From NCBI RefSeq assembly GCF_006345805.1, contig NC_042999.1, positions 62,620,001-62,684,000 of the forward strand: DNA of 64,000 bases. The letters are read 5' to 3'. This DNA is from Octopus sinensis (lineage: Eukaryota). Below, piece by piece: positions 4,761 through 61,310 of the stretch. Below the pieces are notes generated by a model. It saw only the letters and a list, made by a program, of their open reading frames with translations, searched no databases and was not told the DNA's origin. Both the position numbers and the translations under genes were made by a program. Position 1 is the first letter of the stretch; the number at the start of each line of letters is the position of its first letter.

Positions 4761-5016
4761 TTAAGGGCCTTATAACAACATAGATTACTTTAATGGTGTT
4801 AGCTGAAGTTGGTTTAGTTGGTTTCGTAACAGGTGAGTGACCATGAAGTGGCTTGTAAGGTTAGTGAATAAAATAGAGAGAGGTGGGGAAACAGAGAGAA
4901 GTGAAAGAGTTCATATACGATTTTTTGTTGGCTGTTTGGTTATATTTATTAACGAAAAGATAACTGGAAAAAAAAAAAAGAAAGAAAAAACAAGATCTAC
5001 TTACATAACATTTACA

Positions 5017-5060
<44 letters not shown>

Positions 5061-5238
5061 CATAGGGAGAGAGAGAGAGAGAGAGAGAGAGAAAGAAAGA
5101 AATATGAAGAAAGTGAAACAAGTATTTTCTCATCTCAACCACTACAACCAGTGACATCATCAGCAGCAATTAATAACAGATAAGATTTCAGTGGCTGTGG
5201 GTGTCTGTGTGTGCGCGCTTGTGTGTGTGTGTGTGCAT

Positions 5239-5276
<38 letters not shown>

Positions 5277-5789
5277 CATCTTGATTGGTTAGTAATTCTA
5301 ACATGGGTGTGATGTGAGAAAAGAAAACGAAACAAAAAGCAAACAAAGTATAGTTTTGCACAGAAATCCTCTAACATTAACTTTCAGAAGCTGCTCAGAT
5401 TTCTTTCCTTTACGTAATAACTTGATTCTTGATAAAGATCAGGTACAAACAATGTTTGCCAAAGGACCTTGAACAAAGTTAGCAATTCCTAAAAAAACCA
5501 TAAATTTGATTAATACTGTTTTGCTTCTTTTCTTTTCTATACTGTTTAGAGATCTGAGCTGCTTTTTAGCTTTTTGCTCTGAAGCCTTTTCAAATTCTAC
5601 ATTGTTTAGGCTTTATGATGATGAAATTAAGGAAATATTTATATTTTAGAACTGTAGATATTTAGTAAGTGGCTTGATCTGAGTTTATGCATAGAAACTG
5701 AGTCATTTACACCACACAAGAATGATTGATAATCATTTAAAATACACACATACGCCTTTTTATTCACTTCTAATAATAATAATTATAAT

Positions 5790-6050
5790 AATAATGATAA
5801 TGAAATTATTGCATGCAGTGCTCAGGTGCATCACAACTTGTCAAAAGTGCACATAAAGCATATGCAGTAATCTACAAATGTCTGGGAAGCGAACAGTGTA
5901 TGAGTCAGGTACATGCTTGCATGTGTATGGAGGGGAGAAAATCAGGTGTAGCGTTGGCAAATCTCAGGAAGCATGGAAGTTTTGAAGGATGCAGTGCTCC
6001 GACAACTAACAACTGATGCCAGCAGTTTGTTCCATACTTCAGCAACTCTA
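5790..6050 (-). mobile_element. CR1/L2-type LINE 3' end
   Basis: Minus strand reads AEVWNKLLASVVSCRSTASFKTSM-like ORF2 C-terminus, then 3'UTR and (ATT)n tail; same as 25865-26135 (+). Confidence 0.7.
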
Positions 6051-6269
6051 AATTGTTATTTATATCAGTCATTCCTGCACTTATTTTATCTTGGAACCCT
6101 TATACAATTTTTTCCAAATATCATGGTACATATACCCATATCTTATGGACAACTCCTGCTTTCCTAATTTTAACACTTTTGATACCAACTTACCTGAAAC
6201 TGATTTGGTTCTATAACATGAATTTCAGTTCTATAACACAAAGTGATCTAAAGTAAAACCTTTCATCAA

Positions 6270-6477
6270 TACTCTTTTACTCTTTTGCATGTTTCAGTCA
6301 TTTGACTGCAGCAATGCTGGAGCACCGCCTTTAGTCGAGCAAATCGACCCCAGGACTTATTCTTTGTAAGCCTGGTACTTATTCTATTGATCTCTTTTGC
6401 CAAATCACTAAGTTAGGGGATGTAAACACACCACCATCAGTTGTCAAGCAATGTTGGGGGAACAAACAGACACACAA

Positions 6478-6540
<63 letters not shown>

Positions 6541-6683
6541 TATACGATGGGCTTCTTTCAGTTTCCGTCTATCAAATCCACTCACAAGGCTTTGGTTGGC
6601 CAGAGGCTATAGTAGAAGACACTTGCCGAAAGTGCCACGCAGTGGAACTGAACCCGGAACCATGTGGTTGGTAAGCAAGCTGC
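6270..6683 (-). mobile_element. SINE family B nested in a TTAA MITE
   Basis: Matches 1718-2100; MITE halves at about 6170-6270 and 6880-6985. Confidence 0.8.
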
Positions 6684-6766
6684 TATATACCCTCCAGCCT
6701 TCATCAGGTGTCTTGGGGAAATTTTGAACCTGGGTCCTTATTCCTAAGGTATTTTTTGATGTTGTG

Positions 6767-6804
<38 letters not shown>

Positions 6805-6875
6805 GGTCACTGCCTGGAATCAAACTAGGAAGCTCGGGGTTGATAGCCTGTGCTCTTAACCACTACGTCACATGC
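6684..6875 (-). mobile_element. solo PLE pLTR fragment (tRNA-like head + truncated hammerhead)
   Basis: Same sequence as the 3' pLTR of the PLE at 61100-61310; minus strand GACAC-CTGATGA-AGGCTGGAGGGTATATA, truncated in stem II. Confidence 0.75.
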
Positions 6876-8539
6876 TCCAAACAATAGTTTGACAAAGTTG
6901 TTTTATTAAATTCTTCCCTATTTTCAAAGTAAATTGAAATAAAGACAATATATTTCAACAGAAATATAGTAACAAAAAGGGTTGATAAAGCATTCAATGA
7001 AACAAACGTTTTTAAAAGAGAATTTATTCATATAAAAACATATAATTACGTACAAATTCCATTAACTTTTATGTTTCGGGTGAAGTCAGTTTGAAAATAA
7101 ATGAATAAGAAAGATCACCTCTCCAATCGGTTGACTATCTGTGAATAGGAAGAACAAATATTTTGGTTAAACCTTCTAAATGTGCACAAAATAGATGCAA
7201 TTCTGCTTGTGTAACACTCAGATTAACTCTTAGATTTTTTCAAGACTTTTGTTAGGCTTGAAATAGCTGCTGCTACTGCCACCATCATCATCGTCATCAT
7301 CATCATCATCATCATTTGCCTTGGTTAGATAGGTTTTAAAACATCTCACCTCCTGTTACAGTCTCTTGTCATCTTGTACACACAGCGATGGAAACGGAAA
7401 AAATTGCCATGTTTTCTTTTGGAACCACTTTACAACATGAACTAGATACATGCCTATAGTTGTTACTTGGAGTTACTGGTCTTATCAGCTGGTTTCCTGT
7501 ATTGTGCTATGGAGTTTGTCTTTCCTTCATTCCTTCCTTTTCTTTTTCACTATAGTTATTTTTTACAGCTGAATATTCTTCCTAGCACCCACCATTTAAC
7601 AGTGTAAACAGTTGGACAGGCTTTTATGGCATACCTAAATATTTACACCAATTAGTGATAGTGTTTACATTTAAAATTAACTCATTATGGATTAGGTACA
7701 TTTTATCATACCACTTGACTAGAGTATCAGTCTGTTGTAGAACTAAAGAAACCCTCTTAGCTTAGTAATAATGCTATTTATGACTATTGGCTGAAACCCT
7801 CAACCCCATAACGTTTGCTGGTTAATAATGGTTTCAGATCTTGGCACAGGCCCAGTAGTTTTTGATGCAAGGGGAAGTCAATTAAATTGACACCAATTTA
7901 AGTACCAGTCAAGTACTTTGGTACTTGACTGGTATTTTATTTCATTCAATTTGCCATCAAGGCATTACACAGAAGTAGTAGCTATGGGCTGGACAATAAC
8001 ATTAATGAGATGAATGATGAAAAAATGGTATTAATGAGGGAAGGCAGAAGACACCCACCGATCTCTGCTTCTCTAAAACACTGTTCTTTTACAAAACATA
8101 CAATTTGAGGTAATAAACCTCTTACTATTGTTCCATTTGGACTCAAGGTCCTTACAATGAGGCACTAAGCCTCTTACCAAAAATAACACCGTGTCCTTAA
8201 AAATGAGACACTAGGCCTCTTACATTTTTCTCTTTTAGGGCCATATGCCCTTTCAGTATGAGGCACTCAGCCTCTTAATTTTACAATTTTCTGCCCCACT
8301 GGCACCCGACCAGGTTCAAAGCATCACTTAAGCAGTCTGATAGTGCCACGTCAGAGTGCCATAATTGGAAGCGGAATACACCTTCTGGGAAGGAGTCCAT
8401 TATCCGTGTCTGAGATGACCTCCACAGTTACCTATGGAGGCCATCCAGGATCTTTAATGCTGTTTATGTCTCCTCCTCTGGCAAACTTTTTAGTAGACTT
8501 TCCCACTGCCTCTCCCGTGAGGGAGAAGACCAAATATTG

Positions 8540-8699
8540 TACTTATTGGTACTTAGGGTGAAAAGCAAAGTCAACCTCAGCGGAATTTGAACTCAGAATC
8601 TAAAACTGGACGAAATACTGCTAAGCATTTTGACTAGTGCAGTAACAGTTCTGCCACCTCACTGCCTTTCTGCTTATGAATAATAACAATAATAATAAT

Positions 8700-8735
<36 letters not shown>

Positions 8736-8950
8736 TATCCTTTCTACTGAAGGCACAAGGCCTGAAATTATGGGGGAGAGGACTAATCAATTACATTGAA
8801 CCCAGTATTTCACTGGTACTTATTTTATCAACCCCAAAAGGATGACAGGCGAAGTCGACCTCAGTGGAATTTGAACTCAGAACACAAGGACAGATGAAAT
8901 GCTGATAAGCATTTTGCCTGGCATGCTAGCAAATCTGCCAGCTCGCCTCC
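8540..8950 (-). mobile_element. two SINE family A copies separated by (AAT)n
   Basis: GGAATTTGAACTCAGAA B-box-like motif twice (about 8582 and 8866). Confidence 0.75.
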
Positions 8951-9124
8951 TTAATAATAATGATGATGATGACGATGATGATATGTATGTATACATATAA
9001 ATATATATATATACATAAGGGACTAAAGCCATCTGAATATGGCTAGGGACAGGGCAGGGTGGTGGGGGTGTTACTGTTGCATTTAGCCCCAGGCGAACAT
9101 CGACGTCGCCAGATAGGCTTGACA

Positions 9125-9174
9125 CCACACATTGATGATAGGCAATACACCTTGAAACCATGGTCCGTGTGTGG
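9125..9174 (+). ncRNA. type I hammerhead ribozyme motif (copy 1; U3 variant, first stem I pair mismatched)
   Basis: CCACACA-UUGAUGA-UAGGCAAUACACCUU-GAAA-CCAUGG-UC/CGUGUGUGG; predicted cut after C9165. Confidence 0.7.
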
Positions 9175-9485
9175 TTTCCGCTTCATCGGGGAATTATCTC
9201 CCTTTGCAGGTTAAAGGACACCGTGATGGTGTCAAGCCTATCTGGCGACGTCGATGTTCGCCTGGGGCTAAATGCAACAGTAACACCCCCACCACCCTGC
9301 CCTGTCCCTAGCCATATTCAGATGGCTTTAGTCCCTTATGTTATGGAGCAGTTACTGTCTATATCTCATTTAGAGAATTATTATTGCTGTCGAACAGATT
9401 TTCGAAATCAGCAAATGTATTTTGCTTGAAAATCTATATATGAATATCCTGCAGAGTGAGATTTCGTCGAGGAAGCGGGGGCCTA

Positions 9486-9535
9486 CCACACGTTGATGAT
9501 AGGCAATACACCTTGAAACCATGGTCCGTGTGTGG
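9486..9535 (+). ncRNA. type I hammerhead ribozyme motif (copy 2)
   Basis: CACACG/CGUGUG stem I, UUGAUGA, stem II AGG/CCU, GAAA, palindromic ACCAUGGU, GUC cut after 9526. Confidence 0.78.
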
Positions 9536-9747
9536 TTTCCGCTTCATCGGGGAATTATCTCCCTTTGCAGGTTAAAGGACACCGTGATGGTGTCAAGCCT
9601 ATCTGGCGACGTCGATGTTCGCCTGGGGCTAAATGCAACAGTAACACCCCCACCACCCTGCCCTGTCCCTAGCCATATTCAGATGGCTTTAGTCCTTTAT
9701 GTTATGGAGCAGTTACTGTCTATATCTCATTTAGAGAATTATTATTG

Positions 9748-9793
<46 letters not shown>

Positions 9794-9854
9794 TAACAGA
9801 ATGAGATAAAAATCCAAGGCTGTGAAAGATTTCAGAACATTTATAAAGAGAAAG

Positions 9855-9900
9855 TCTTACAGCTGTTTCCAGGATATTTTATGTATCCCTTCATTGGAGA
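9855..9900 (-). ncRNA. hammerhead motif, probably inactivated copy (CCAAUGA)
   Basis: UCU-CCAAUGA-AGGGAUA..UAUCCUG-GAAA-CAGCUG-UA-AGA; G5 changed to A. Confidence 0.55.
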
Positions 9901-10130
9901 TGGCGTGAGAAAATGGTTAAGCAATAGTTATTCTAGATAAGATATGAAATAGAGAGTGAAGTGGAGGAATGAAAATAGACGTGAGATATGCAGGGATATT
10001 GTATCTACAGTTCCATTATTTAGGCAGAATGGTATACATATAAGATTCCTGTACCTTGTGTGTATTTAAAATTGGTCATTCCAAGCATAGAGTTTGTAAA
10101 CGGTGTTATTGAATTGTTTTATACATATGA

Positions 10131-10209
10131 GCGGTTTAGCTTAATTGGTTCAGTGCACCGCGACGCATAATCACGGAGGTGTGAGTTCGAGTCTCATAGC
10201 CGGCCGCCA
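10131..10209 (+). tRNA. tRNA-Met(CAT)-like module (repeat-embedded, probably not a functional tRNA)
   Basis: A box TAGCTTAATTGG, anticodon arm CCGCGA-CGCATAA-TCACGG, T arm GTGAG-TTCGAGT-CTCAT, ends GCCGCCA followed by T6. Confidence 0.6.
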
Positions 10210-10348
10210 ACACTTTTTTCTGCAAAATAGGGGTAGCTTATCCTGTCCAGGCTATATGATTAGCATTATCCTGCATTTGAGAATTTAAAATCACTTCTTT
10301 AACTTTCTAAGACATCTCAACACTTCTAAAGCAAACTTCTTTTATCTA

Positions 10349-10420
<72 letters not shown>

Positions 10421-10478
10421 CAGAATGAGATAAAAATCCAAGGCTGTGAAAGATTTCAGAACATTTATAAAGAGAAAG

Positions 10479-10524
10479 TCTTACAGCTGTTTCCAGGATA
10501 TTTGATGTATACCTTCATCGGAGA
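10479..10524 (-). ncRNA. minimal hammerhead motif with CCGAUGA core
   Basis: UCU-CCGAUGA-stem II-GAAA-CAGCUG-UA/AGA; palindromic ACAGCUGU stem III. Confidence 0.65.
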
Positions 10525-10743
10525 TGGCGTGAGAAAATGGTTAAGCAATAGTTATTCTAGATAAGATATGAAATAGAGAGTGAAGTGGAGGAATGAAAAT
10601 AGACGTGAGATATGTATCTACAGTTCCATTATTTAGGCAGAATGGTATACATATAAGATTCCTGTACCTTGTGTGTATTTAAAATTGGTCATTCCAAGCA
10701 TAGAGTTTGTAAACGGTGTTATTGAATTGTTTTATACATATGA

Positions 10744-10822
10744 GCGGTTTAGCTTAATTGGTTCAGTGCACCGCGACGCATAATCACGGAGGTGTGAGTT
10801 CGAGTCTCATAGCCGGCCGCCA
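10744..10822 (+). tRNA. tRNA-Met(CAT)-like module, second copy
   Basis: Identical to 10131-10209. Confidence 0.6.
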
Positions 10823-10961
10823 ACACTTTTTTCTGCAAAATAGGGGTAGCTTATCCTGTCCAGGCTATATGATTAGCATTATCCTGCATTTGAGAATTTA
10901 AAATCACTTCTTTAACTTTCTAAGACATCTCAACACTTCTAAAGCAAACTTCTTTTATCTA

Positions 10962-11013
<52 letters not shown>

Positions 11014-11260
11014 CAATATTTTATAATTACAAATATAATTATAATTAGGGTTCACCAAAGATTTGCTTTACCACATACTGAAGTTTAGAAATAGCAGCCA
11101 AAGAACCTTAGCTATTTCTTCTACTATAAGAAGAGACTCCCGGACAAAAACAAAATGGTTCTTTTTCATGCCGAATTCTACTTGGTGAAATTATTGATTA
11201 CTAGTTAATTAATTAATTTTACCCTTTATTATTATTGATATATGTATATATATATATAAC

Positions 11261-12345
11261 AACTGGAAAAGATACCTCGATGACTGTTTCATCATCTGGG
11301 ACAAAGGCATAGAGAAACTTGAGGAATTTAAAATTCTATTAAATGGAATAAATGACAATATACAATTCACGATGGACCACAACGAAAAAGAATTACCATT
11401 TTTAGACATCCTCATTAAGAAAACCGGCAACAAAATAGAGACAGATATCTACTATAAACCGACAGACTCTAAACAGTACCTACCCTTTGATTCATGCCAC
11501 CCACGACACACTAGAATGAATGTCCCTTTTGTTTAGCTAGAAGGATTTGCACCATAATATCAGACACAAACACCCGACACACACGTCTCCAGGAACTTAG
11601 AACCACACTCACAAATAGAAACTATCCACAGCCCCTAATAGACAGTGCAATCCAACGGGTACTTAAATTAAGTATAGAAGACCTGAGACAAACAAAACCA
11701 AAAAAGAAAGAACAATTAAAAACCCTTCCCTACATCTCTACACACAACCCACTCAACAATGAGGCCTTCAACACCATACTACAAAGCACAGCCCTACTAA
11801 AGGGAGACCCAAAGATGAACCGGATCCTCGAAACACACACCATCATTAAAAGTAAACGGCAACCAAAATCCTTGAAAAGGATTTTAACCCAAGCTACACT
11901 GCACTCAACATCAACCACAAAACCAGCAGTTAGAAAATGTGGAAGGCCCAACTGCGGAATCTGTGTCATCTTGAAAGAAGGATCAGAATTTATACTGGAA
12001 CAAGGCCACCAGTTCACCATCAGAACAAACTTCACCTGCGCATCAGAAAACTTAATTTACGTCATAACATGTGCAGGCTGCAATAGGCAGTATATAGGCC
12101 ATACAAAAAATAGCTTACGTAACAGGATGGCGATGCATAAATCACAAATTAGAAACCCTGATTACTGCAAAATACCGGTCAGCGGACACATAGATAGATG
12201 TGCTGGAAATGTAAATCCGAAATTTACAACTAACCCGCTCTATAAATTCAGTGACAACGCAACCTTCACACAACGCCAAAATAAAGAACTATATTTCATA
12301 AAAAAATTTAGACCAAGTTTAAACACCCTGGGCCAGGAATACTAA
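11261..12345 (+). pseudogene. PLE reverse transcriptase + GIY-YIG endonuclease, one frameshift near 11530
   Basis: NWKRYLDDCFIIW, IQFT..LPFLDI, IYYKPTDSKQYL..SCHP, CGRPNCGIC knuckle, NLIYVITCAGCNRQYIGHT..LRNRMAMH..ELYFI..PSLN. Confidence 0.92.
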
Positions 12346-12509
12346 AACAAAAGATAAGTCCTCCGAAAAGGAGAACCAAATTTCACCACGGCCGCTACTT
12401 CAAACAGACACTCACTCTGACGAAATATGCCTTAGTAAAAAAGGAAAAGAATTCTTTCGTGCAAATCTGACCCTGATACATACGATACAGCTAAGGGTCA
12501 GACCCGATT

Positions 12510-12885
12510 CTGATTGGTCAACAAGTTGATGACGTCTAGCTCTGCTAGAATGGACAGGATACAAACAGGGGACAGTCATTAGTCAGAATATTGATGACGT
12601 CCTTTTCTGCTTGGATAGTCACCTAACAAGTACAGACAGGGGGCAGATCTAATGTAGCTATAAGTCGTGATTGGGCAGAATCTGGATGACGTCCCGCTAT
12701 GCTTGACTAACGAAGCGACTGGTCAAGACAGGAAACAAACAAGAGGGAGTTATAATGCAGCGATTGGTCAAAATAATGATGACGTCCCGTTCCACTTGAT
12801 TAAAGCCACCTAACGAAACGATTGGTCAAAACATTGATGACGTCACGCTACGCTAGATTGACCACCTAACAGGCATTATAAAACC
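12510..12885 (+). promoter_or_regulatory. array of five inverted-CCAAT + CRE composite sites ending in a TATA-like box (PLE internal promoter candidate)
   Basis: ATT(G/A)G-N11-12-TGACGTC at about 12513, 12578, 12670, 12763 and 12821; TTATAAAA at about 12876. Confidence 0.6.
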
Positions 12886-13225
12886 GAGCATTTCACAAAA
12901 ACTCACTTGAACCACCCAGCGAACTTCCACCATGGGTCATCACAATTGCTTAAGGTAAAAATGAATTCCTCGCTCTTTCGGAAACATCAATCTTCTGTAT
13001 TGACCGCTTTCCACCACTTTGATCTGTTTTTTGTATTGAATACGTATCGCCACCGTGGGCCACTGCATCGAACACTTTGAACATATACTTCAAACTATAT
13101 ATCAACTATACATGAACTATATATCAACTATACATGAACTCTAAGATGTCTGACTCCGTTGTGTATTATAAATGAATTTCTTGTGTTTGACGGCATGAGC
13201 TGTCTCTTTTTATATATAACTTTTT

Positions 13226-13262
13226 TTGATAAGGTTCATTTCAGGAACTGAAACATGTTATA
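13226..13262 (+). ncRNA. candidate hammerhead with U3-A8 covariant core
   Basis: UUGAUAA-GGUUC(AUUUCAG)GAACU-GAAA-CAUG-UU near the PLE 3' end; stem I weak. Confidence 0.45.
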
Positions 13263-13834
13263 ATGTATATATAAAAATTAAAAATTGTATAATACAGCAG
13301 CATTTTCGAACTTCATTTTTTACAAATATATATATATATATATATATACTTGTGTTTTGAGTTGTATTTTCATGTTTGTATCACCAAACCTATTTACTCT
13401 GTAGTAACAATTTACATAGGAAGTTTTGTCATCATCAACACAAGTAAAGATTGATTTAAAACTTCTGAAACAATAACAACAACAACAGCAATCCATCCAA
13501 ACACAATTCCTTTTCAAATAAAGATGCGATCATATGTTCCCAAATCAGTGAGATGGTTAACATTTTATGGTAAACGTTTTATTTCCAACATTTTCTATTT
13601 AGTCTACTCCAGTATACTAACAAAGACTTTTTCTCCTTCTTTGCATCTAATTTATTTTTCTCTTATTTATTCGTTATAGTCGTGGAAGAGAGAAAGGGGC
13701 CATTAAACTTCAACATGGGTAAAGGGATCATCTATTTCTTAAATCAAATCTCACTTACTTACTTGTTCTTACACTATCTTCTATCAATGCTGTGGTACCA
13801 CACTCAGTTTGGCTTTGATTTTAATCTTTACTAC

Positions 13835-14210
13835 ATCATATTTTAGCTATAGCTTCAACATCATTGCTATATCGTTGCTATATCATTGCTATATTGTTGC
13901 TATATAACACCTCTGCACTGATGCAAGGAAACTATTCCTTGTCATTGCTTGTTATGACAACTTATACCCATGATTGCTATGACATCATCCCTCTACAGTA
14001 TTGATGTAATAAAACAAACACTCATTACATCATATTGTAGCTAAACCTTCAAAATCATTGCTATGATACTATATATTGTTGCTTGCTATATATCATTTCT
14101 GCACTGACACTAGGAAAACATTCCATGCCATTGATTGTTATGACAGCCTGTACCTATCATTGGTATGACATCATCCCTCTGCATTTTTGAATTAATAAAA
14201 CAAATGCCCT
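13835..14210. repeat. diverged tandem duplication of about 190 bp, rich in TTGCTAT
   Basis: CTGCACTGA..GGAAA..ATTCC..GTTATGACA..TATGACATCATCCCTCT occurs twice. Confidence 0.7.
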
Positions 14211-14517
14211 GTCATTAAAGAAGCCCCATTGTCTTAAGTCATTTACTATAACACTATACTGTAATATTATTTCCACAAAATACTACTTTGTTACTATCAT
14301 ATTTTATCATTTGGTTACTAAAGCATTTTATTATTCCAATAACATTTTATTTGTTCTTTACAGTAGTGCTATGCACCATCATTGCTTAGATTAAATGTTG
14401 TTATTTTAGCATTTTGATTCTGCTTGAACACTTTATTCTGTTCAACTAATTAATTATTTTCATGGATTCCTGGATGAAATATATTAACTTGTGAATTTTT
14501 TTTATCGACTATTCCAG

Positions 14518-14637
14518 AACACAGACGTTACTGAGCAGAAAAGGAGAAGAATTTTGCACCAATACTAGTTCCCTAAATCATTTCAACATGACTAGCATCT
14601 CGAAAACAATGAAATACATTGATATTGAAAAGAACAG
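14518..14637 (+). CDS. internal coding exon of unidentified gene (TQTLLSRKGEEF...DIEKN)
   Basis: ttccag acceptor, AG/gtgagt donor, 120 nt open, phase 2-2, joins in frame to 26609. Confidence 0.6.
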
Positions 14638-15067
14638 GTGAGTGATCTGTTAAATAATTTACACAAAGGACATCATCATCCTCATCATCATCATCATTGT
14701 CATCATTATCATTATATCATCATCATCGTCATCATCGTCATCATCATCATCATCATCAACAATGATTTTGACATCTGCTTTGAGGCAGAATATTACAGTC
14801 AGGTACGCTTCCTGTCACTACCCCTTACTTGTTTCTTAGTAAGGTACTATTCTTCTCATTTTTCACATGAAAAATCATACACTGGCTGGATATCCTTTTT
14901 ACAGCAGGTTTGGCCAGTAAAAGCAAAGATGTTGTTTCATATCAATTAAGGTACTAGACAGAAATTCAAGAAACTAACTATCCTTAATATCAAAAAAGGG
15001 TAAAAATCATTAATGATTTATACCAAGTGGTCAGTGTGGAAATAAAACCTCATAGGTACATTTTATA

Positions 15068-15471
<404 letters not shown>

Positions 15472-16114
15472 ACACATACATTTATATATACATATATATG
15501 TATATAAATGTTTACGTATATATCTATATATCCAAATCAAACATCAAAAGTTGAACATTAACAACTAAACATTAAAAATAACAATAACAAAATGACAATG
15601 AGATGTACATATGGAATGTATTAGCTTGATGTTGTATATATATATATATATCTGTAGAGAGAGGGAGAGAGAGAGAAAGAGATTTGTATCATAAGATATG
15701 GAATCAGAGAATCATGTAGCTATCACAGAAAGCTCTAATGGACACTTGTCTAACAGTTCACATAGTAATCCAATACAAAAAAGTGTAATACAGAGTGTCC
15801 ATGCAGTTGAAATCCAAAAGATCTAATTGATGAATTTATTTCATGAGGAGTATCATAAAAAATTAAGAGGTATAAGAGGTGAATATATTTATTTAACCTC
15901 TTAACATTCTCAGGATTATGGCCATTTTGCAGCCTTCTTCATGTAGTAATAATTTCAACATGGAAAAAATTATACTTATAGGTTTGCATGCTTGGCATTA
16001 TACAATAGAATTGTATAGTCACAAATCAATGCAAGTAAAGAAAGCTAGCTCATCAGATCACCAGAGCATATTACACCTATGATTCAACCCTAAGTAAACA
16101 CACAAAATTGGTCT

Positions 16115-22307: not shown

Positions 22308-22712
22308 ATACATATAAATAAAGTGTACATTTAAACACATAAGAGATGGCCATAATAGGACATCTGACCTGCTAGAAGGAGTAGTTAAAATTCAAACCAC
22401 TATTAGGGATAAATTCGAAAGGGAATGAAAAATAAAAACATTTACCATTTATTTCCTGTACCATGGTTTCAAGCTATCTTCAGCAAATAAAATATTTTTC
22501 ATTCCCTTTCGAAATTACCCCTAATAGGGGTTTGGAATTTAACTACTCCTTCTAGTGGATCAGATGTTCTATTATGGCCATCCCTTATGTGTTTAAATGT
22601 ACACTGTATTTATATGTATAATATATAGTCTATTGACTAGTTTTCTTCTTCTCGCTAGACCACTGGTGGCAAAAAAATTCTAAATAAATTTTTTTGCTAC
22701 CCTTAATTTTAT

Positions 22713-56582: not shown

Positions 56583-57041
56583 TCAATGACGCTTGGTCGA
56601 CCAATTATTTAAATCTTCAGTACTGAGAATCTCTTGCACTACTTTTTGCACATCATTGTTGTGTTTATCCAACAAGGTCTGGTTAAGCTCTCGATTAGCA
56701 AATCCCATCTCAATCAGTTTGGTCATAGGTGACTGAGGTTCACGCTGAAAGTGAGGTTTTGGCCATTGCTTCTGTCCATTGTATTCAGTGGCTTCTCGGC
56801 TTTTACTTGAATCTGTTTGGTCAGAGTGTTTTGAACAATTACCAATTAGACAAGTGACACAGTCTGTCTCATCAACACCAGTACCATTTCTGTTGCTGTT
56901 CACGTTAGTAGCATGCTTCTCACAACCAACAACACTACAAACAGGACAGTACTGTTCTTTGCCATCGTGCTTTCTGGTAGACGGAGACCAGGCAGAATTG
57001 GTTGCCATATTAGAGTGTCCTTGTTGAATTACACCATCAAC
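56583..57041 (-). CDS. NBR1: last exon of NBR1-like autophagy receptor (C-terminal UBA)
   Basis: tctctgcag acceptor; MTKLIEMGFANRELNQTLLDKHNNDVQKVVQEIL..NNWSTKRH* resembles the NBR1 C-terminal UBA (MGF.R..N..LL.KHN..W...R). Confidence 0.8.
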   Translation of the reverse strand, partial: VDGVIQQGHSNMATNSAWSPSTRKHDGKEQYCPVCSVVGCEKHATNVNSNRNGTGVDETDCVTCLIGNCSKHSDQTDSSKSREATEYNGQKQWPKPHFQREPQSPMTKLIEMGFANRELNQTLLDKHNNDVQKVVQEILSTEDLNNWSTKRH

Positions 57042-57164
57042 CTGCAGAGAAATAACAAAAATTAATAGCAAGATGTTTTGGGGTTTGTTTTTTTTTTTTG
57101 CCACATTTTATTTCTGACATTTCACTTATTTCCATTATTTAGAATGGACAGATAGGTATCCTCA

Positions 57165-59766: not shown

Positions 59767-61310
59767 CAGTTCTATATTTAAGAGATGAAGAATTATGTAC
59801 ATTATTTACATTTCACAAGGATGGTATTCCATTAAGTCCTATAGTGAGCTGGAGAGGTTCATTCATGTAAGCCACTGAGCTGCTTCCTTGTGGATATAAT
59901 CACTCCATTAGCAGGAAAGTCAACATCATATGTGAAGTATTCCACCCACTTCACAGAATTGATCAAGGATACCCCCATTGAATCCAACCAGATGGTGAGT
60001 CTAGATGTGATAAGTCTCTTCACCAAAGTCCCAACTGGTGAAGCACTATCGGTGATTCAAGAAAAACTAGTGACAAATACCCATCTAAAAGAATGCACTA
60101 GTATACCAATAAGAAACTTGATGGAAATGTTGACCTTCTGTGTAGAAACTACTTCAGAACGGACACTGATATATATCAACAAGAGGAGGGTTTAGCAATG
60201 GGTTCGCCATTATCACTGATATTAGCCAATATATACATGGAATACTTTGAGAATTTGGCTTTAGGATCAACACCACTAAAACCAACACTATGGCTACGAT
60301 ATGTTGATGGCACCTTTATACACTGGCCCCACCAGGAAGATGTCCAAGTGCTGTTAGATCATGTGAACTCAATAAAGCCGTCCATACAGTTCACAATGGA
60401 AAAAGACAGTCAGATGGCATTCCTGGACGTATTAATAACATGCACCAAGTATGGTTTCAGGACATCTGTATACCGCAAGCCGACCTTTACTGGACGATAC
60501 CTCAACTTCAATTCCCACCATCCATACAGTGTAAAGAGAGGGATTGCTCAGTGCCTAAAACATCATGCAAAGAATATAAGTAGCGACTGTGATACACACC
60601 ACAAAGAAATGACCATGCTCAATAAGGATCTGTTAAACAACAACTACCCCTAAAGTATACTATCCACTCCAATTATAAAGAATAGAGAGGATGAGGCCAA
60701 TAAACTGTCCACAGTCTGTCTACCCAAAGTGGAAGGCCTCTCCGAAAAGATACAAAAGATATCTGGCCCATATGACATCAGGACAGTATTCAAGAGTAAT
60801 ACAACACTTCTCAGATATCTCCTTCGAGTAAAACCACCAAAAGAAGAGAATTCGACCAAAGCAAAACATGCTGCCCCCTCAAAATAAGGGCAGACGAACA
60901 TCGCAAAGCTGTGACACAAGGAGATATTGGTAAATCAGGTATAGCTGATCATGTATGGGAAAATGGAGACCACCTCCCCCTGTGGGATGAAGTTAAAATA
61001 ATAGCCAGAGAACACCACTGGAAACATCAACCTCCTAAGCAGACTGAGTGCGGATATGAGTAGTATATGGGAACTGGTATTAAGGAAAGAAAGGAAAATA
61101 GTAGTGGTTAAAAGTGCAAGATTCCAAGTTTGATTCCAAGCAGTGACCTAAATAATAATAATAATATCAAAAAATACCTTAGGAATGAGAACCCAGGTTC
61201 GAAATTTCCCCAAGACACCTGATGAAGGCCGGAGGGTGTATCAGCCGAAATGTTGTGTTAACAACAAACAAGATGACAAATATTTGTCAAATGTAAATAA
61301 TGTAAATAAG
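59767..61310 (+). mobile_element. decayed Penelope/Poseidon-type PLE with 5' inverted pLTR piece and 3' pLTR
   Basis: MVSLDVISLFTKVP, MGSPLS..ANIYMEYFE, WLRYVDGTF, IQFTME, VYRKPTFTGRYLNFNSHHP, EN remnant EHRKAV..KSGIADHVWE; 59767-59813 is the inverted pLTR end. Confidence 0.88.
61214..61259 (+). ncRNA. minimal hammerhead in PLE pLTR
   Basis: GACAC-CUGAUGA-A-GGC(C)G..CAGCC-GAAA-UGUU/GUGUU; loop-less stem III would require a dimer. Confidence 0.7.

Follow-up and report, generated by a model that had tools for sequence, protein, structure and literature searches.

A 361-nt hammerhead repeat of Octopus sinensis with the sequence traits of a non-LTR retrozyme and the insertion anatomy of a PLE

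The window analysed here, a stretch of 64,000 nt from contig NC_042999.1 of Octopus sinensis, contains at positions 9013-9749 an insertion built from a non-coding 361-nt unit that carries a type I hammerhead motif. The insertion belongs to a young and dispersed family, lying inside a wider radiation, whose insertions follow PLE rules: the helices of the hammerhead covary, copies stop at two alternative 3' ends, a tail is present at one end only, and read-through copies extend beyond one unit. We consider it probable that this is a protein-free repeat which inserts into (TA)n in PLE-like fashion, is transcribed as a multimer that is predicted to be cut and closed into a circle, and is copied in trans by PLE enzymes. 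Mussel retrozymes of the same size have already been published (Cervera & de la Pena 2020, PMC7229834); to these the present family adds an insertion rule backed by counts and a U3.G8 core that has been amplified.

Layout of the locus and its two hammerheads

The insertion is organised around a direct repeat, in which positions 9124-9388 recur at 9485-9749 (265 nt, 99% identity, spacing 361). In direct order the locus therefore holds one complete unit (copy 1, 9124-9484, plus strand) and 265 nt more (copy 2, unit positions 1-265, 9485-9749, plus strand), the copies differing at two sites, 9131 and 9335/9696. No stop-to-stop ORF of at least 120 aa overlaps copy 1, and no promoter was identified. 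An inverted, 5'-truncated second arm lies upstream (9013-9127, minus strand, unit positions 104-218); over its 115 nt it is the 100% reverse complement of 9227-9341, and it overlaps copy 1 by 4 nt. The outer end of this arm is the tail-less end of the insertion, and copy 2 is closed by a 44-nt tail (9706-9749, plus strand), assigned from the anatomy of the inverted loci described below. A (TA)n target tract flanks the insertion on the right (9750-9790) and a shorter AT-rich tract on the left (about 8990-9012). Repeat comparison thus confirms the tandem unit, the 115-bp inverted arm and the (TA)n on both sides that a previous sequence-only reading had described.

Two hammerhead cores begin at 9132 and 9493, and their GUC triplets finish at 9165 and 9526, after which cleavage is predicted. 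Comparison of the copies identifies the second hammerhead (9479-9538, plus strand) as a complete type I motif, with a two-part helix I, a core at 9493-9499 with U3.G8, a helix II with a U.U base (9500/9514), GAAA at 9515-9518 and a palindromic helix III at 9518-9525. The first (9126-9177, plus strand) is damaged: its core at 9132-9138 is intact, but copy 1 starts only where the inversion joins, so that the outer part of helix I and the conserved loop-1 U are missing, and a G2.1>A change at 9131 places an A.C mismatch beside the cut. The earlier statement that a hammerhead heads each copy consequently holds for copy 2, which has the only complete motif at the locus, while in copy 1 the motif is truncated and mismatched. 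An Rfam scan of 5000-16000 at E<=1 returned no hammerhead match, so that the motif call was tested by, and rests on, the comparison of copies and not on a library match.

In a folding model that has no tertiary terms, the active fold of copy 1 reaches -2.8 kcal/mol against a minimum of -18.4 (16 above), and that of copy 2 reaches -7.7 against -15.0 (7 above). In a dimer, cleavage at site 1 would fall to core 2 and cleavage at site 2 to the damaged core 1, so that by either route one of the two cuts would be handicapped. Because the upstream motif is damaged, it is doubtful whether a monomer can be released here, and the locus is probably a poor source of new copies. The predicted cut-to-cut monomer itself (9166-9526, plus strand, 361 nt) folds with its two ends paired, and it does so better than shuffled sequences both in linear form (z -4.29, 0 of 100 shuffles as good) and as a circle (z -4.38, 0 of 40). 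The monomer of a sister family, 63% identical, likewise folds better than its shuffles (z -4.14), and a consensus fold of 12 sequences contains 86 pairs, 17 of them with a double change.

The family and its covarying hammerhead

Comparison of the unit with the genome gave 1,257 candidates, of which the best 40 were scored. An exact 27-nt core occurs 83 times (reversed control 0), and these occurrences were grouped into 57 loci, the sequences of all of which were retrieved; matches longer than 100 nt within them average 97.4% identity to the unit at 9124-9484. Broader patterns recover the wider radiation, with 464 matches for a degenerate core (control 0), 575 for a U3.G8 core (control 0) and 2,931 for the loosest motif (control 8). 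The genome-wide search that had been proposed earlier therefore does find dispersed copies, and the controls of 0 for the exact and the degenerate core rule out chance occurrence of the motif. Units compared from the wider set measure 348-354 nt and are 63-70% identical to the 361-nt unit in their aligned parts. Within the family, G and C occupy 155 of 349 columns (44%), and 21 cut-to-cut monomers are present among 70 loci.

A subfamily in which both position 3 and position 4 of the core are C (U4C; loci L020, L023, L027, L084 and L094) has been amplified, making up 7 of 114 motif instances, and the same variant occurs in one contig of a sequencing run (X4) guessed to be RNA. At two loci (L005 and L025) tandem units inside one locus bear different subfamily haplotypes, which suggests template switching between RNAs or gene conversion. 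An editing-like A>G bias among variants shared by copies was considered and is unsupported (5 versus 1, p=0.10).

In order to judge the hammerhead as a structure, we compared 151 motif instances of 74 types from 110 loci. The search patterns had fixed most of the core, the GAAAC and the bases after the cut, which therefore carry no evidential weight; free to vary were position 3, all of helix II, one strand of helix I (the 5' one) and the inner four bases of helix III. Of the 74 types, 54 have a perfectly palindromic helix III, of which five distinct sequences occur, and the number rises to 68 when G.U pairs are admitted; the chance of a perfect palindrome is 1 in 16, the types being related and not independent samples. 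The palindromic helix III of the sequence-only reading is thus kept across variants. For covariation, 45 types were used after 29 rows with a truncated helix I or near-duplicate sequence had been dropped. A model comprising the two-part helix I, helix II and helix III pairs 94% of cells, against at most 54% for slid-structure controls, and double-sided changes occupy 96 cells where shuffles average 30.5 and none of 500 reaches the observed value; two of five whole-structure measures were no better than shuffles in this set (50/500 and 495/500). Judged by these sequence comparisons, the hammerhead is genuine as a structure and its helices I-III covary. Almost no variation is found at a U in the bulge of helix I or at an A of loop II, which would form the loop-loop contact of canonical type I hammerheads.

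The motif ranks as a full-size type I hammerhead, since its two-part helix I has 11 bp, its helix II has 3-4 bp and A9 is followed by no additional base. The minimal PLE hammerhead that had been suggested, marked by a short helix I, a long helix II and an extra base after A9, does not describe it. Minimal PLE hammerheads (Cervera & de la Pena 2014, PMC4209133) share with the octopus motif the type I topology, the palindromic helix III and a known U3-A8 variant, and differ from it in the three features of helix I, helix II and the post-A9 base.

The pair 3:8 varies, being among the 74 types U.G in 28, C-G in 26, U-A in 18 and C.A in 2. The core at 9493 has the unusual U3.G8 and not the canonical C3-G8, and its relatives carry C3-G8 or U3-A8. 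Both this pair and the U.U base of helix II had been flagged as non-canonical. The U.U base has published precedent (PMC3088659, section 8; PMC7229834), as does U3-A8 (PMC3088659, section 8; PMC4209133); for U3.G8 no account was found in a literature search whose scope did not extend to the paper of Lunse et al. on dimer-cleaving PLE hammerhead variants, which may hold one. The combination of U3.G8 with U10.1.U11.1 may make for a slow or dead ribozyme. The natural 3:8 series (C-G, U-A, U.G) in otherwise similar motifs offers a test of the catalysis that a retrozyme needs.

Insertion anatomy and the nature of the template

Of the 100 blocks present in the 57 loci, 93 finish within 216-221 or 261-267 of the unit, which defines two fixed 3' ends, 44 nt apart and nearly always followed by (TA)n. 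Head-to-head (inverted) arrangements are found at 40 of the 57 loci, which combine a partial tandem with an inverted 5'-truncated arm. In 36 of these 40 one end is short and the other carries the 44-nt tail, no locus has two short or two tailed ends, and 4 are unclassable. The (TA)n after most 3' ends matches the microsatellite targets of Neptune and Naiad elements, and any target-site duplication, which in non-LTR retrozymes is longer than 4 bp when present, is unreadable inside such a tract. Partial tandems, inverted truncated arms and one-ended tails form the pattern described for PLEs (Craig et al., PMC8557442; Arkhipova et al., PMC3846280), and the octopus insertions follow the same rules.

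The course of reverse transcription through the predicted cut site bears on the form of the template. Synthesis starts about 180-220 nt downstream of this site, and of 100 passes 97 read through it and only 3 end 8 nt or less away, the background rate being 4.4%; among the shorter arms, which are less affected by the choice of loci by their core, 1 of 31 passes stops there. A linear cleaved monomer would halt synthesis at the cut, so the template was either a circle or an uncut multimer. Arms exceed one unit in 49 of 97 cases, the longest reaching 880 nt, and yet two cores in direct order are present at only 8 of 57 loci (7 found by script, and L006), so that the number of units must be regenerated. 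A circular template best fits the read-through; an uncut linear multimer fits the read-through itself equally well, and a circle gives the simpler account of how truncated insertions can again yield copies of several units. Variants private to a locus and common to both of its direct copies occur at 8 of 69 loci (11 shared, 110 unshared), and they are weakly suggestive of a template read twice, two of the eight (L073 and L160) being complex loci.

From these observations we infer a cycle that leads from read-through transcription to the helper. Transcription reading through from the few two-core loci would give multimers, and cleavage after GUC would be aided by the pairing of two palindromic helices III. 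A host ligase of the RtcB type could close the product into a circle, by analogy with the retrozymes of mussel and axolotl (PMC7229834). Target-primed reverse transcription would then begin where a GIY-YIG endonuclease has nicked (TA)n, take position 221 or 265 of the unit as its start and, by going repeatedly round the circle, rebuild the unit number at each insertion, with the enzymes supplied in trans by an autonomous PLE.

Much of the same evidence could be read differently, as a non-autonomous PLE with a weak or vestigial U3.G8 hammerhead whose read-through multimers remain uncut and whose tandems are rebuilt by template jumps, with little or no circle. The non-canonical 3:8 pair and U.U helix II base, the amplification of the C3C4 core as well, the lack of a stop at the cut site and the few loci joining two subfamily haplotypes, as template switching would, all agree with this; many PLE and retrozyme hammerheads are also reported with low or absent cleavage, and cleavage was absent from eight of the nine Xenopus dimers assayed (Li, Clavereau & Pollet 2026, bioRxiv 10.64898/2026.07.22.740005). 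We nevertheless judge it unlikely, as helix III stays palindromic through paired changes within the U3.G8 group itself, C.A at 3:8 is rare, and the scarcity of two-core loci calls for regeneration of the unit number.

That the copies are merely truncated terminal repeats (pLTRs) of an autonomous PLE is disfavoured to the point of being very improbable. Where family loci were mapped against the unit, their last hammerhead is preceded either by flank or by further unit sequence, PLE protein is seldom present and lies in separate insertions where examined (see below), and the autonomous PLEs of this genome carry different, shorter hammerheads. These points outweigh, in our opinion, an anatomy identical to that of truncated PLE ends and genome searches that cover the best candidates only. 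A local tandem duplication, or a satellite with a chance hammerhead-like motif, would sit well with the lack of an Rfam match and is refuted by dispersal over many contigs with fixed ends, by pattern controls of 0-8 and by the covariation. Returning to the favoured cycle of cutting, circularisation and copying in trans, we tentatively advance a more specific and rather less likely version of it, in which hundreds of recent copies run on a slow, dimer-dependent U3.G8 hammerhead that keeps the circle closed while a Neptune reverse transcriptase rolls round it. If this were true, the pairing of one short with one tailed end would be a direct readout of PLE integration of a circular template.

Contigs from four sequencing runs guessed to be RNA hold family sequence, mostly of other subfamilies, and reveal neither strand nor RNA end nor circle. 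Two contigs starting at 9167 and 9528 were considered as cut ends and are explained by a variant 30 nt further on, and the one contig that goes back 359 nt continues into (TA)n, as expected of a tandem copy in the genome. Reads joining 9526 to 9166, which had been put forward as evidence of a circle, are rejected as proof, since the same junction is present in tandem DNA.

Helpers, relatives and neighbouring elements

A separate Neptune-type PLE lies downstream (11258-13325, plus strand), comprising the end of a reverse transcriptase with a GIY-YIG domain, an upstream cysteine finger of Neptune type and a terminal (TA)n. This PLE is truncated at the 5' end and frameshifted, bears at 13226-13259 a hammerhead-like motif of its own with U3-A8, is without sequence similarity to the 361-nt unit and is not part of the insertion at 9013-9749. 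At four loci open frames of 781 aa are 99% identical to it over the endonuclease region, and with such intact members elsewhere its family could act in trans. The proposal that the PLE 1.5 kb downstream is the mobiliser therefore points to the likely class of helper, whereas this copy is itself broken and unrelated in sequence. Its family bears a tail, mostly of 27-38 nt, at 8 of 22 ends, and a second Neptune-type family combines short and tailed ends in 11 of 14 inverted pairs; both Neptune families thus show the optional tail and TA ends of the 361-nt family. The young Neptune family (13226-13259; L180-L183 and L187) has a hammerhead-like motif with U at the cleavage position H17, where U is normally not cut, and older relatives (L185, L186) have A.

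Genome searches, which cover the best candidates, found no autonomous PLE that shares sequence with the unit; nor was a reverse transcriptase and GIY-YIG ORF found in cis, or homology to an autonomous pLTR. PLE protein matches occur at 5 of 110 retrozyme loci (L067, L107, L112, L020 and L072), and at the first four, which were inspected, they are separate insertions beyond (TA)n tracts. Composite Neptune-retrozyme elements were likewise rejected as separate insertions at these four loci and at L184, L216 and L057, in a check that left out L072, L208 and L212. A Neptune-type PLE is the more probable helper, at slightly better than even odds; the main alternative is a Naiad, to which we assign a substantial if smaller probability, Naiads also targeting (TA)n and having been reported from Octopus (PMC8557442).

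With a type I hammerhead in a unit within 150-450 bp, no coding capacity, a GC content below 50% and a highly self-paired monomer, the family belongs by sequence criteria with the non-LTR retrozymes, for which cleavage and circles would be predicted. Together with the PLE-type insertion anatomy, this upholds the earlier view of a non-autonomous, non-coding hammerhead retroelement of that kind. The closest parallels are the 350-390-bp retrozymes of Mytilus galloprovincialis and the axolotl Rtz353 / HHR_Amex2 (PMC7229834), which have the same unit size and lack of coding sequence, a type I hammerhead whose palindromic helix III is likewise short, motifs that number in the thousands in a genome and the same self-paired monomer; HHR_Amex2 likewise has U.U at the base of helix II, and these retrozymes also coexist with PLEs bearing different hammerheads. 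The octopus family differs from them in a core that is often U3.G8 or U3-A8 and in copies of mostly 0.6-2.4 units placed head-to-head, where the published retrozymes form long arrays. In the part of that paper considered here no mention was found of (TA)n targeting or a one-ended tail. Cleavage and circles have been demonstrated for the mussel and axolotl retrozymes, whereas for the octopus family they are predicted. The same authors regard PLEs as a 'strong candidate' for retrozyme mobilisation, the route of reinsertion being still a hypothesis (PMC7229834).

A link to PLEs has also been drawn from other evidence. Li et al. (2026) treat non-LTR retrozymes as non-autonomous PLE derivatives, and their Xenopus hammerhead repeats are likewise non-autonomous and proposed to use PLE machinery; in the portion of the preprint considered, the case is built for Xenopus on homology of pLTRs and on joint occurrence, and molluscs are not among the animals sampled. 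In octopus no pLTR homologue was found, and the connection comes from insertion anatomy. Neptune, Naiad and non-autonomous Chlamys elements such as MRC1 (PMC8557442; PMC3846280) show the same partial tandems, inverted 5'-truncated arm, one-ended tail and microsatellite targets. The octopus family differs from these in having no ORF, in a tail of 44 nt against 30-40 in endonuclease-bearing PLEs, and in its hammerhead, a feature absent from Naiads and from most Chlamys. Our literature search, which did not extend to most subscription papers or to the supplements of PMC7229834 and the 2026 preprint, where cephalopod elements may be listed, turned up no description of a retrozyme from a cephalopod; for the giant squid, 235 'hammerhead 1' Rfam matches are listed (PMC6962438). 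Since the marks of PLE insertion can be counted in this family and intact Neptune ORFs occur in the same genome, a small donor-plus-helper assay becomes feasible.

Other parts of the window contain further elements. At 22320-22640 (minus strand) a TA-flanked element with two long inverted arms carries in its loop a very short hammerhead-like motif, with a canonical core at 22483, a tiny helix II and a palindromic helix III; it is probably a second non-autonomous family of PLE type. A decayed Penelope/Poseidon-like reverse transcriptase element occupies 59800-61300 and includes, near 61210, what by eye is a minimal hammerhead with a canonical core and an extra A after A9. An ORF at 56583-57107 (minus strand) ends in a stretch that we take to be UBA-like and is probably the last exon of a host gene. 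Directly beside the insertion, 9791-10955 consists of a local duplication of about 613-624 nt, each copy of which contains one tRNA-like head (10132-10202 and 10745-10815; 25.7 bits in Rfam, below the cut-off). These heads are part of an abundant repeat of about 210 nt that ends at (TA)n (3,033 candidates), and some of its genomic copies are tandem or inverted.
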